In this document: piece by piece, positions 52,705-57,566 of the stretch
Numbering within the stretch: position 1 is the first letter of the stretch
Layout of the letters: the number at the start of each line of letters is the position of its first letter
DNA from: Alphaproteobacteria bacterium
GTDB taxonomy: Bacteria; Pseudomonadota; Alphaproteobacteria; RF32; CAG-239
NCBI GenBank assembly: GCA_900769705.1
Contig: CAAGHP010000020.1
Location: forward strand, 94,974 to 158,973
Direction: 5' to 3'
Length of the DNA: 64,000 bases
Made by a program: the position numbers and the translations under genes
The notes under the pieces: generated by a model
Told to the model about the DNA's origin: nothing
The model's input: the letters and a program-made list of their open reading frames with translations, nothing else
Databases searched by the model: none

Positions 52705-54048
52705 ATGGATAATAAGACAATTTATGCTTTATCTACAGTGTTCGGAAAATCCGGAGTAGGGATAATTCGTATATCCGGTAACAAAGCTTTTGAGGTAATT
52801 TCCCAAATGACGGATTTAGATGTCGCAAAAATTGCCGGCCGCAAAATGTATTTAACTAAATTTTATAATCCTGTTTCACGTGAAACATTAGATAATTCTT
52901 TGCTGGTGGCTTTTAAATCTCCTGCCTCATTTACAGGAGAAAATACTGTAGAAATAAATTGTCATGGCTCAAAAGCGGTTATCCGTAGTTTTTTAGAGGC
53001 ATTGTCTTTGCTACCGGATTTTCGTTTGGCCGAACCGGGGGAATTTTCTCGCCGCTCGTTTTATAACGGTAAGATGGATTTGACAGAAGCTGACGGTTTA
53101 GCAGATTTAATAGATGCTGAAACCGCTTTGCAGCAAAAAGTCGCCTTGCAACAAATGGGGGGAACCTTGTTTGATTTATATAATGATTGGCGCACCAGAT
53201 TGGTTAATGTTTTGTCTTATATAGAAGCATATATAGATTTTCCTGATGAGGATATTCCGCAGGATACGGTGCAGAAAATCGAAAACGGTGTATTTAAAAT
53301 TTCAGAAGAAATTAAAAATCACTTACAACAGAATAATGTGGAAGAACGTTTGCGCGATGGTTTTAGAGTTGTAATTGCCGGACCTGCAAACGCCGGAAAA
53401 TCTAGTTTGATAAATGCTGTTGTCAAAAGAAATGTGGCTATTGTTTCTGATATTGCCGGAACAACCCGTGATGCTATTGAAGCTTATGTTGATTTAAATG
53501 GATTTCCGGTAATTTTTACCGATACAGCCGGACTGCGTGAATCTGCTGATAAAATTGAACAAATCGGTATTAAGCTGGCAAAGGATAAAATTGCGGAGGC
53601 TGATTTTTGCTTGTTTATGTTTGATGCTGAAAAAGATACGCCGGAAATTTTTGCCGAATATATAAATTCTATAAATGTGCCTTATGTTTTGGTTGCTAAT
53701 AAAATGGATAAAATATCCGCGGATCAGCAAATAAAATTGCAAAAGAAAGGGTGTATTTTAATCTCGGCTAAAGAAAATCAAAATGTAAACGTTATTACTG
53801 ATAAAATTTATGAAACATTTCAGAATATGTATGTGAAAAGCTCTGCTCAGCTGATTACCAGACAGCGCTATAAAGAATCTTTGTCGGAATGCTTGGAGAA
53901 TTTAAGTCGTTTTAATCTGCAAAAAGAAATTGAATTGTCGGCTGAGGATATTCGTTTGGCTTGCCGAGCTATCGGTAAAATTACCGGTCAGGTGGAAGTT
54001 GATGAGATTTTAGATAAAATATTCAGCAGTTTTTGTATTGGAAAATAA
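52705..54048 (+). CDS. mnmE: tRNA modification GTPase MnmE (TrmE)
   Basis: TIYALST..G.SGVGIIRISG N-domain. G-domain GPANAGKSSL. C-terminal CIGK. Confidence 0.95.
   Translation: MDNKTIYALSTVFGKSGVGIIRISGNKAFEVISQMTDLDVAKIAGRKMYLTKFYNPVSRETLDNSLLVAFKSPASFTGENTVEINCHGSKAVIRSFLEALSLLPDFRLAEPGEFSRRSFYNGKMDLTEADGLADLIDAETALQQKVALQQMGGTLFDLYNDWRTRLVNVLSYIEAYIDFPDEDIPQDTVQKIENGVFKISEEIKNHLQQNNVEERLRDGFRVVIAGPANAGKSSLINAVVKRNVAIVSDIAGTTRDAIEAYVDLNGFPVIFTDTAGLRESADKIEQIGIKLAKDKIAEADFCLFMFDAEKDTPEIFAEYINSINVPYVLVANKMDKISADQQIKLQKKGCILISAKENQNVNVITDKIYETFQNMYVKSSAQLITRQRYKESLSECLENLSRFNLQKEIELSAEDIRLACRAIGKITGQVEVDEILDKIFSSFCIGK
52872..52887. promoter_or_regulatory. parS site (TGTTTCACGTGAAACA), perfect consensus, inside the mnmE coding sequence
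   Basis: Exact 16-bp palindrome. Encodes VSRET. Confidence 0.7.
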
Positions 54049-54169
54049 TAAAACATTGTATTTAAATTTTGTTTATAAAAAAATACGCTGTATTTAAATC
54101 TGTGCGGCGTATTTTAATTTGCATTTATTTTAGTTTTGTGCTTTAGTGTAAAAAAAATTAGAGGCTGAA

Positions 54170-56014
54170 ATGAATAATATGTATGATGTGATTGTTGTTG
54201 GCGGTGGACATGCAGGTTGTGAGGCTTGCGCTGCTGCGGCACGTACCGGTGCTAAAACTTTGTTGGTTACTCATAAAATTTCTACAATCGGCGAAATGTC
54301 GTGCAATCCTGCTATTGGTGGATTGGGAAAAGGACATTTGGTGCGTGAAGTAGATGCCTTAGACGGGTTAATGGGGCGTGTTATAGATAAAGCTGGTATC
54401 CAGTTCAGAATGCTTAATTTATCTAAAGGACCTGCTGTGCGTGGGCCGCGTGCTCAGGCTGATCGTGCACTCTATAAAAAGTATATGCTGCAGGCTTTGC
54501 AGGAAACTCCTAATTTGGATATTAAAGAGGGAGCAGTTGAAGGTTTGCTGATAAAAGATAATAATGTTTGCGGTGTAAAGCTGGCTGATGAAACCGAAAT
54601 TTTTGCAAAAGCCGTGGTTTTGACAACCGGTACATTCTTAAATGGTATTATGTTTACAGGTCATCAAACTTCTATCGGCGGACGTGTCGGAGATATTTCA
54701 TGTACTGGTGTAACGCCTTATTTAAAATCTTTAGGCTTACAGCTGGGGCGCTTAAAAACCGGTACGCCATCTCGTTTAAACGGCGATACGATTAACTGGG
54801 ATATTTTGGAAAGACAATCCGGCGATAAAAATCCGGTGCCGTTTTCATTTTTAACTAAAGAGCTTAATAATCGCCAAATTGATTGCGGTGTAACTTATAC
54901 AAATGAAACTACGCATAAAATTATTCGTGATAATTTTTCTAAGTGTGCTTTGTTTTCCGGTTTGATTACCGGTAAAGGGCCGCGTTATTGTCCGAGCATT
55001 GAGGATAAATTAGTCCGCTTTGCCGACAGAACGTCTCATCAGATTTTTTTAGAGCCTGAGGGATACGATACAAACGTAGTTTATCCTAATGGTATTTCTA
55101 CATCATTGCCGGCTGATGTGCAGGATGCTTTTATTCATACGATGAAAGGCTTGGAAAATGTAGAAATTTTGCGCTATGCGTATGCAATTGAATATGACTT
55201 TGTTAATCCGCAGGAACTAGATCATTGCTTAGCCGTTAAAAAGTCTAAGGGATTATATTTAGCCGGACAAATCAACGGTACAACCGGTTATGAAGAAGCG
55301 GCGGCTCAGGGCCTGCTTGCCGGTGTAAATGCGGCTTTGTTTGCTCTTGACCGCGGTAAGGAATTTAATATTGACCGCAGCCAAGGTTATATCGGAGTTA
55401 TGGTTGATGACTTAATTACTAAAGGCGTGGATGAGCCTTATAGAATGTTCACCTCTCGTTCGGAATATCGTTTGGTATTGCGTGCCGATAATGCTGATGC
55501 TCGTCTGACAGAGCTTGGTTATAATATCGGCTGTGTTTCTGAAAATAGATACAGTGTATTTAAAACTAAAGAAGAGAAGATTAAAAAGTTTGATGATTTT
55601 TGCTTAAATAAAATTGTTTCTTATCCGGAAATAGAAAGCTTGGGCATAACTGTAAAACATAATGGTAAAAAGACACTGAAAGATTTGCTGGGTTATCAAT
55701 ATGTTTCACGTGAAACAATTTCAAAAATTGCACCGGAAAGCAAGGATATAGAAAATTCTGTTTACGAACAAGTTGAAATTGATGCTAAGTATGCGGGTTA
55801 TTTAAAACGCGAATATGAGGATATCGCCGTATTTAAACGTGATGAAAATTTACAAATTCGTGATGATATAGATTATTCTAAAATCGGCGGACTATCTACG
55901 GAAATGATTCAGCGCTTTACGGCTGTAAAACCAAAAACAATAGGTGAGGCCGCTCGCATAAAAGGTGTTACTCCGGCAGCTGTTACAGCTATTTTAGGAT
56001 ATATCAAAAAATGA
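54170..56014 (+). CDS. mnmG: tRNA uridine 5-carboxymethylaminomethyl modification enzyme MnmG (GidA)
   Basis: YDVIVVGGGHAGCEA FAD fold. 614 aa. Confidence 0.95.
   Translation: MNNMYDVIVVGGGHAGCEACAAAARTGAKTLLVTHKISTIGEMSCNPAIGGLGKGHLVREVDALDGLMGRVIDKAGIQFRMLNLSKGPAVRGPRAQADRALYKKYMLQALQETPNLDIKEGAVEGLLIKDNNVCGVKLADETEIFAKAVVLTTGTFLNGIMFTGHQTSIGGRVGDISCTGVTPYLKSLGLQLGRLKTGTPSRLNGDTINWDILERQSGDKNPVPFSFLTKELNNRQIDCGVTYTNETTHKIIRDNFSKCALFSGLITGKGPRYCPSIEDKLVRFADRTSHQIFLEPEGYDTNVVYPNGISTSLPADVQDAFIHTMKGLENVEILRYAYAIEYDFVNPQELDHCLAVKKSKGLYLAGQINGTTGYEEAAAQGLLAGVNAALFALDRGKEFNIDRSQGYIGVMVDDLITKGVDEPYRMFTSRSEYRLVLRADNADARLTELGYNIGCVSENRYSVFKTKEEKIKKFDDFCLNKIVSYPEIESLGITVKHNGKKTLKDLLGYQYVSRETISKIAPESKDIENSVYEQVEIDAKYAGYLKREYEDIAVFKRDENLQIRDDIDYSKIGGLSTEMIQRFTAVKPKTIGEAARIKGVTPAAVTAILGYIKK
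55702..55717. promoter_or_regulatory. parS site (TGTTTCACGTGAAACA) inside the mnmG coding sequence
   Basis: Exact 16-bp palindrome. Confidence 0.7.
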
Positions 56015-56850: not shown

Positions 56851-56915
56851 TGAATAACAATTATATTTTGTTGCATAAAATTTAAATAACGCATACTTTA
56901 TAATCAGAGGTAAAA

Positions 56916-57566
56916 ATGAATTTTGATGAAGAAGTTTTAAGTTATGATGTTTCACGTGAAACATTGCAAAAAATGAAAGATTTTTTGCAAATTCTTTTAG
57001 AATGGAATCAAAAAATTAACTTAGTCAGCAAAAATGCCGAAAAAGAGCTTGAAACGCGCCATCTTTTAGATTCTTTGCAGCTGATAGATTATATTCGCGA
57101 TGATGCAAAATTGCTTGTAGATATAGGCAGCGGTTCCGGTTTCCCGGGAATTGTGCTGGCTATTGCCAGTCAAGAAAAATTTCCGATGCTCAAAATCGTG
57201 CTTATAGAAAGTATAACTAAAAAAACATTGTATTTAAAAGATGTTTGTAAACGGCTAAATTTATTGAATGTAGAAGTTATAAATGACCGAGCTGAAAACA
57301 TTGTATTTAAAGATGTTGACTATATAACGGCTCGTGCCGTTGCATCGGTTGATAAAATTCTGAAGTGTACAGCAGGGCTGTATTCTAAAAATACAGAATA
57401 TGTTTTGCTTAAAGGCCATACAGGATTCGCTGAGTTGGAAGAGGCTGATAAAAATTGGAAAATGTTGGTAGATATTCATGAGGATTTTTACGCACGCCCA
57501 TTTGAAGTTGAACGCGGCAAAGAAGGATATGTTTTCTGCTTGACGGGAATAAGGAGAAAAAAATGA
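56916..57566 (+). CDS. rsmG: 16S rRNA (guanine527-N7)-methyltransferase RsmG (GidB)
   Basis: LLEWNQKINL ... DIGSGSGFPGI.LAI. Confidence 0.9.
   Translation: MNFDEEVLSYDVSRETLQKMKDFLQILLEWNQKINLVSKNAEKELETRHLLDSLQLIDYIRDDAKLLVDIGSGSGFPGIVLAIASQEKFPMLKIVLIESITKKTLYLKDVCKRLNLLNVEVINDRAENIVFKDVDYITARAVASVDKILKCTAGLYSKNTEYVLLKGHTGFAELEEADKNWKMLVDIHEDFYARPFEVERGKEGYVFCLTGIRRKK
56948..56963. promoter_or_regulatory. parS site (TGTTTCACGTGAAACA) inside the rsmG 5' coding region
   Basis: Exact 16-bp palindrome. Confidence 0.7.

Follow-up and report, generated by a model that had tools for sequence, protein, structure and literature searches.

What is one and the same 16-bp palindrome, TGTTTCACGTGAAACA, doing inside the coding sequences of three different housekeeping genes? 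The question is raised by a stretch of 64,000 nucleotides (hereafter the window) from an uncultured Alphaproteobacteria bacterium (assembly GCA_900769705.1, contig CAAGHP010000020.1, positions 94,974 to 158,973 of the forward strand), in which exact copies of the palindrome are found within mnmE, mnmG (gidA) and rsmG (gidB), upstream of the partition genes parA and parB. We conclude that the three palindromes very probably serve as the centromere of the chromosome, being parS sites of a canonical ParABS system. This identification is made from sequence comparison, and it is based on the exact agreement of the copies with the parS consensus, the motifs of the cognate ParA and ParB proteins, conservation at the level of the DNA and uniqueness in the surrounding region.

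Three palindromes upstream of parAB

The palindrome occurs three times in the window and not once in 100 dinucleotide-preserving shuffles of it, and all three copies match the 16-bp inverted repeat TGTTNCACGTGAAACA at every position. The 16-mer is identical to the Bacillus subtilis and Mycobacterium tuberculosis parS of Lin and Grossman (1998) as quoted in PMC2346475, and it is also the global parS consensus of Livny et al. (2007) as cited in PMC2346475 and PMC6650430. This consensus is bound by ParB in B. subtilis, in mycobacteria and in the alphaproteobacterium Hyphomonas (PMC2346475, PMC6650430, PMC7022226), in the last case as seen in an electrophoretic mobility shift assay (PMC6650430).

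A preliminary description of this DNA had reported the three exact copies, each inside an open reading frame, as a compact array of about 4.1 kb with parA and parB immediately downstream. All of this was borne out (Table 1): the computed span of the array is 4092 bp, parA starts 615 bp downstream of copy 3, and parA is directly upstream of parB. The same description had placed the array in mnmE, mnmG and rsmG just upstream of parAB, and while this order holds, it overlooked a gene for a PHP/HisJ-family phosphatase that intervenes between mnmG and rsmG. The ATG of this gene overlaps the mnmG stop codon, and the gene is present only in a gut and rumen clade of relatives (L007-L011 of the loci introduced below), being absent from Rhodospirillaceae-like ones.

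The open reading frames around the par locus were identified with NCBIfam models. It can be seen in Table 1 that parA is assigned by matches to the ParA/MinD family and by a deviant Walker A motif. ParB aligns to the structures 7bnk (Myxococcus ParB) and 6t1f (Caulobacter ParB) with E values of about 1e-54, the alignment to 6t1f covering residues 7-249, and it also matches Spo0J of Thermus and Bacillus. It carries the N-terminal motif LGRGLEALLG, the CTP-binding boxes GERRWRA and ENLQRE, and a helix-turn-helix that keeps the residues corresponding to R173, T179 and G201 of the Caulobacter protein and has G at position 184, not the K of Noc. It has been shown by Jalal et al. that Q/K/K/R at the four specificity positions switches ParB to the Noc site (10.1101/724823). 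Judged by these specificity residues, the ParB encoded in the window is of the parS type.

Table 1. Coordinates of the parS copies, their host genes, the par operon and related features of the window.
Feature	Position	Strand	Description
parS copy 1	52872..52887	.	Exact consensus palindrome in mnmE, codons 56-61, PVSRET
parS copy 2	55702..55717	.	Exact consensus palindrome in mnmG, codons 511-516, YVSRET
parS copy 3	56948..56963	.	Exact consensus palindrome in rsmG, codons 11-16, DVSRET
mnmE	52705..54048	+	NF003661, 545 bits; hosts parS copy 1
mnmG (gidA)	54170..56014	+	TIGR00136, 814 bits; hosts parS copy 2
PHP/HisJ-family phosphatase gene, 279 aa	56011..56850	+	Between mnmG and rsmG; no parS inside
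rsmG (gidB)	56916..57566	+	TIGR00138, 152 bits; hosts parS copy 3
parA	57563..58330	+	ParA/MinD-family matches; deviant Walker A KGGVGKTT; partition ATPase
parB	58331..59242	+	TIGR00180, 193 bits; predicted CTP-dependent parS-binding clamp
dnaE	59501-63013		NCBIfam
Near-parS TGTTTCACATGAAACA	26337..26352	.	Intergenic; central G to A (G9A); 26.5 kb upstream of the cluster
Candidate oriC	9054..9489	.	Divergent rho(-)/coaE(+) intergenic region; 22% GC

Each of the three copies starts at a third codon base, so that the codons GTT, TCA, CGT, GAA and ACA are read as VSRET, in the contexts PVSRETL (MnmE), YVSRETI (MnmG) and DVSRETL (RsmG). The preliminary description had drawn attention to this common peptide. 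The reading frame is indeed the same in all three cases; however, the coincidence is unremarkable. Of the three frames in which the palindrome can be read, one is closed by a TGA, and this applies to both strands as the palindrome is its own reverse complement, therefore only two readings, xVSRET and xFHVKx, are possible within a gene. The common VSRET frame is thus weak evidence. Among exact parS copies in long open frames of the 80 other loci that we compared (L007-L086), the VSRET frame was found 34 times and the FHVK frame 9 times.

It might be supposed that the 16-mer is a repeat of a generic kind found throughout the genome, either resembling a repetitive extragenic palindrome (REP) or a miniature inverted-repeat transposable element (MITE) or serving as the operator of some other regulator, and that its proximity to parAB is a coincidence. 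We scanned the window together with about 9 kb to its left and about 10 kb to its right (taken from the same-species metagenomic contigs L087 and L090), and in these roughly 83 kb there was no parS with up to two mismatches beyond the three exact copies and a single near-copy, TGTTTCACATGAAACA, at 26337, which was also the only extra site in the window when three mismatches were allowed. Within these roughly 83 kb, the genome-wide scan for copies with one or two mismatches that the preliminary description had proposed left the cluster on its own, except for this one-mismatch site. In favour of a repeat are the limitation of the scan to about 83 kb of the genome and the location of the near-copy in an intergenic hairpin, as is typical of REP-like elements. 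However, the likeness among the three exact copies stops at 16 bp with no shared flanks, which also ruled out a longer repeat or a mobile element; neither the extended flank similarity nor the intergenic scatter of REP- or MITE-like sequences was seen, three of the four copies being intragenic; experiments have defined exactly this sequence as the target of ParB; and clustering upstream of parAB recurs across phyla, most of the 80 other loci having a parS that precedes parAB by no more than 5 kb. A dispersed repeat is accordingly very unlikely, and the palindromes are best regarded as parS sites.

Conservation of the palindromes in relatives

Identical ParB proteins are encoded on contigs of 60-320 kb in many human-gut metagenomes. 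The nearest relative at the species level is an uncultured Alphaproteobacteria metagenome-assembled genome (MAG) from Hadza samples, with a ParB of 91% identity. Alphaproteobacteria MAGs from rumen and gut come next, at 62-66%, ahead of Rhodospirillaceae-labelled MAGs at about 50%.

The site in rsmG is the most widely kept. All 16 bases are present at the same codons in L007, L008, L011, L012, L013, L014 and L047, and 15 of the 16 in L017, even though the flanking DNA of these relatives is only 30-64% identical (0.30-0.41 in the lowest cases) and some of the genomes have a far higher GC content. The mnmG site is likewise kept at 16 of 16 bases in L007, L008, L010 and L011, with a flanking nucleotide identity of 0.60-0.91 and with 13-23 of 30 third codon positions identical in the flanks. 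The mnmE site is exact in the sister species L007, is represented in L011 by a variant with one G-to-A mismatch (read as VSHET), and is absent from the same position in more distant relatives, in which this segment of the protein is variable and contains indels. By this distribution the mnmE site is the youngest of the three, being known only from L007 and, as the variant, from L011. The preliminary description had suggested a comparison with the parS positions of related alphaproteobacteria; when this was carried out, the rsmG and mnmG sites were both kept at the same codons in the relatives just listed for each.

These comparisons bear directly on whether the identical DNA could be a by-product of a VSRET motif that MnmE, MnmG and RsmG each need, with no function for the DNA as such. 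All three copies do encode VSRET followed by L or I, and an N-terminal VSRET is widespread among alphaproteobacterial homologues of RsmG. However, the peptide could be encoded in 1152 synonymous ways, and the copies in relatives nonetheless keep the same 15 coding bases together with the T that precedes them. Within parS all six third codon positions are always kept, compared with 6-16 of 30 in the flanks of distant relatives. Furthermore, in orthologues that lack the site this position is taken up by unrelated residues or altered by indels, although the genes are intact: MnmG of L009 has VKREV in place of the parS peptide (8 mismatches), the RsmG proteins of L009 and L010 have GISEAEF and GIGEQEY, NCG-EIL is also found, and MnmE has indels. 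The three host proteins are unrelated to each other and the segments concerned are variable loops, and in many genomes the same 16-mer is found in intergenic DNA beside parAB. As the synonymous sites are invariant, a requirement for the peptide is effectively refuted and we regard it as hardly tenable. We conclude that, with the 16 bases invariant while their flanks diverge and with homologues that lack the site carrying unrelated peptides, selection acts on the DNA and not on the peptide, and that the DNA of parS is conserved more strictly than the coding sequence that overlaps it would require.

Not all of the sites stay in one place. L009 and L010 lack the rsmG parS, and L009 also lacks the mnmG one, but exact parS copies are found in adjacent intergenic DNA of both (at 4925 and 7851 in L009 and at 5673 in L010). 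It follows that site positions turn over while two to three sites are maintained between mnmE and parA. Against this background the site at codons 11-16 of rsmG appears, from the loci compared, to be an ancient and positionally fixed centromere across divergent Alphaproteobacteria, with the other sites turning over. That coding-embedded parS copies in gidA and gidB are known from other bacteria, as had been stated in the preliminary description, agrees with what we saw in many of the other loci. Clostridia have a conserved LVSRETS parS in mnmG, about 22 codons upstream of the mnmG site of the window; shared ancestry of the two was considered and rejected as the codon is a different one, and the embedding is thus independent. 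In the Bacillales-type loci L033, L038 and L049, parS is inside spo0J/parB.

It is highly improbable that ParB at these sites mainly regulates transcription of mnmE-mnmG-rsmG-parAB, by roadblock or silencing, in place of marking a centromere: for mycobacteria it has been suggested that ParB at parS regulates gidB and parA (PMC2346475) and spreading ParB can silence genes in plasmid systems (PMC4010829), but the parAB1 operon of Vibrio cholerae is not autorepressed (PMC4010829), the feature conserved here is an intragenic position and not overlap with a promoter, and a regulatory side effect would be compatible with a centromere role.

Chromosomal setting: a near-copy and a candidate origin

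The near-copy at 26337 had no counterpart in the shuffles, which gave no site with one mismatch or fewer. Its bases make up the stem of a hairpin, the intrinsic terminator of hsp20 (26332-26357, minus strand), 8 nt past the hsp20 stop codon. With an 11-bp stem, a 4-nt loop and a T7 tail, and with a folding energy of -16 kcal/mol (z = -5.5), this hairpin has the features expected of an intrinsic terminator. It is invariant in nine strains, and this invariance fits the roles of terminator and parS alike. A dual purpose, in which the hairpin would terminate hsp20 in the RNA and provide a weak site for ParB loading or anchoring in the DNA, is in our estimation unlikely. If it were true, the site, which lies about midway between the candidate origin (at about 9.3 kb) and the cluster (at about 53-57 kb), would extend the partition complex originward. 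The same G-to-A variant of parS was observed in L011 (at 4371, in place of the mnmE site), in L072 (at 8875) and in L052 (at 17090). Immediately downstream of the hsp20 terminator there is a gene on the minus strand (21148-26289) for a 1713-aa autotransporter with BigA-like repeats and a beta-domain, the length of which is 1695 to 1699 aa among strains.

The preliminary description had taken the array to mark an origin-proximal region. A candidate for the origin was found in the divergent rho/coaE intergenic region, which contains five DnaA-box-like 9-mers, including two of the three exact TTATCCACA of the window (about 0.2 expected from the window-wide density), and two of the seven TTAA-N7-TTAA (CtrA-box-like) motifs of the window. 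At this position the GC skew, negative or close to zero before it, also becomes steadily positive. The origin region of Caulobacter is, we assume, likewise flanked by rho and coaE-dnaQ, but the cluster is here on the coaE-dnaQ side rather than on the rho side, where the Caulobacter gene order would presumably have it. From the candidate origin it is 43.4 kb to parS copy 1, and the cluster as a whole is 43-48 kb away. We regard the proximity of the cluster to the origin as supported but not proven, because the change in skew coincides with a switch in gene orientation.

Some points weigh against the identification of the cluster as an origin-proximal centromere. The count that shows the palindrome to be locally unique covers about 83 kb, and the whole chromosome is probably of megabase size; the call of the origin is made from motif counts and a change in skew over a short range that is confounded with gene orientation; and 43-48 kb exceeds the distance of roughly 8 kb in Caulobacter (PMC5815017), yet it is close on the scale of a chromosome.

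The remainder of the window is ordinary chromosome, with smr, mltA, a tim44-like gene, secB, trmL, ppdK, rho, coaE, dnaQ and ampG as well as rarA, lepA, lysS, trkA and typA. Three conserved open reading frames flank the par locus, at 50623-52563 (646 aa), at 59255-59497 (80 aa, directly after parB) and at 63015-63956 (313 aa), and none of them gave a match to Pfam or NCBIfam. About 3.6-5.8 kb past the right end of the window, contig L087 (13558-15774) encodes a TraG/VirD4-type coupling protein of a type IV secretion system along with unknown genes, and a gene for an extracytoplasmic function (ECF) sigma factor adjoins; what lies here, near the par region, may be a conjugative element that has integrated or a type IV secretion locus. 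Nearby, an FGE-sulfatase gene and a 90-aa open reading frame vary in their presence between strains (L001 compared with L002).

Proposed working and comparison with known systems

The binding and spreading of ParB at these sites, and their role in segregation, are proposed here by analogy with model organisms. Dimers of ParB would nucleate on the palindromes, each monomer recognising one half-site with its helix-turn-helix. After binding CTP they would close as clamps and slide outwards across roughly 10-20 kb of neighbouring DNA. In this way the region from mnmE to dnaE would become a single partition complex, which ParA-ATP gradients on the nucleoid would draw into the daughter cell along with the origin close by. 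SMC, too, is probably loaded at this complex. The sites sit in variable segments of three housekeeping proteins that would tolerate substitution, and they are read there in a stop-free frame as VSRET, a peptide that would be innocuous. The function of the DNA would thus dictate the peptide, and not the reverse.

The cluster locates the centromere of a very prevalent, uncultured alphaproteobacterium of the human gut, and in combination with the rho/coaE intergenic region it also locates the probable origin region. This could be of use in annotation, for orienting and closing MAG assemblies, for estimating replication rates from coverage and for reading Hi-C maps. The locus is also a clean example of selection at the DNA level that overrides codon choice in housekeeping genes. 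It leaves the understanding of ParABS systems unchanged: the arrangement is a textbook instance of an already known kind of element, in an organism not yet described, and the only mildly novel points are the near-parS embedded in a terminator and the persistence of the rsmG site at one position over deep divergences.

The Noc-binding sites (NBS, TATTTCCCGGGAAATA) of Firmicutes are similar in kind, as they too are 16-bp palindromes bound by a protein of the ParB family. However, at positions 1 and 6, which discriminate between the two kinds of site, the palindrome of the window matches parS and not NBS, the 239 bits that its ParB reaches with the Noc model fall short of the curated cut-off of 315, and the specificity residues are R/T/G/G and not Q/K/K/R; on these grounds an identity as Noc and NBS was rejected.

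Caulobacter crescentus and Hyphomonas neptunium belong to the same bacterial class and have parS upstream of parAB in a rho/mnmE/gidA/gidB/parAB neighbourhood, and their ParB proteins are 50-60% similar to that of the window and have the same specificity residues. In H. neptunium, parAB is preceded by two perfect TGTTTCACGTGAAACA copies (PMC6650430). Caulobacter has a cluster about 8 kb from the origin, in which several of the sites are degenerate, with about 10 kb of spreading (PMC5815017), compared with three perfect sites at about 43-48 kb from the candidate origin here. In most species 2-10 parS sites are found near oriC (PMC7022226).

The closest comparison is with the type Ia ParABS system represented by Spo0J/parS of B. 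subtilis, which has the identical 16-bp palindrome in clustered copies beside parAB; its copies lie near the origin, as those of the window probably also do. Some parS copies of this type are also within coding sequence, in spo0J/parB in the Bacillales-type loci and in parA in Mycobacterium bovis (PMC2346475). We find no difference of substance between the two; what sets the present case apart is that the hosts of the sites are mnmE, mnmG and rsmG, in an uncultured gut alphaproteobacterium of about 38% GC.

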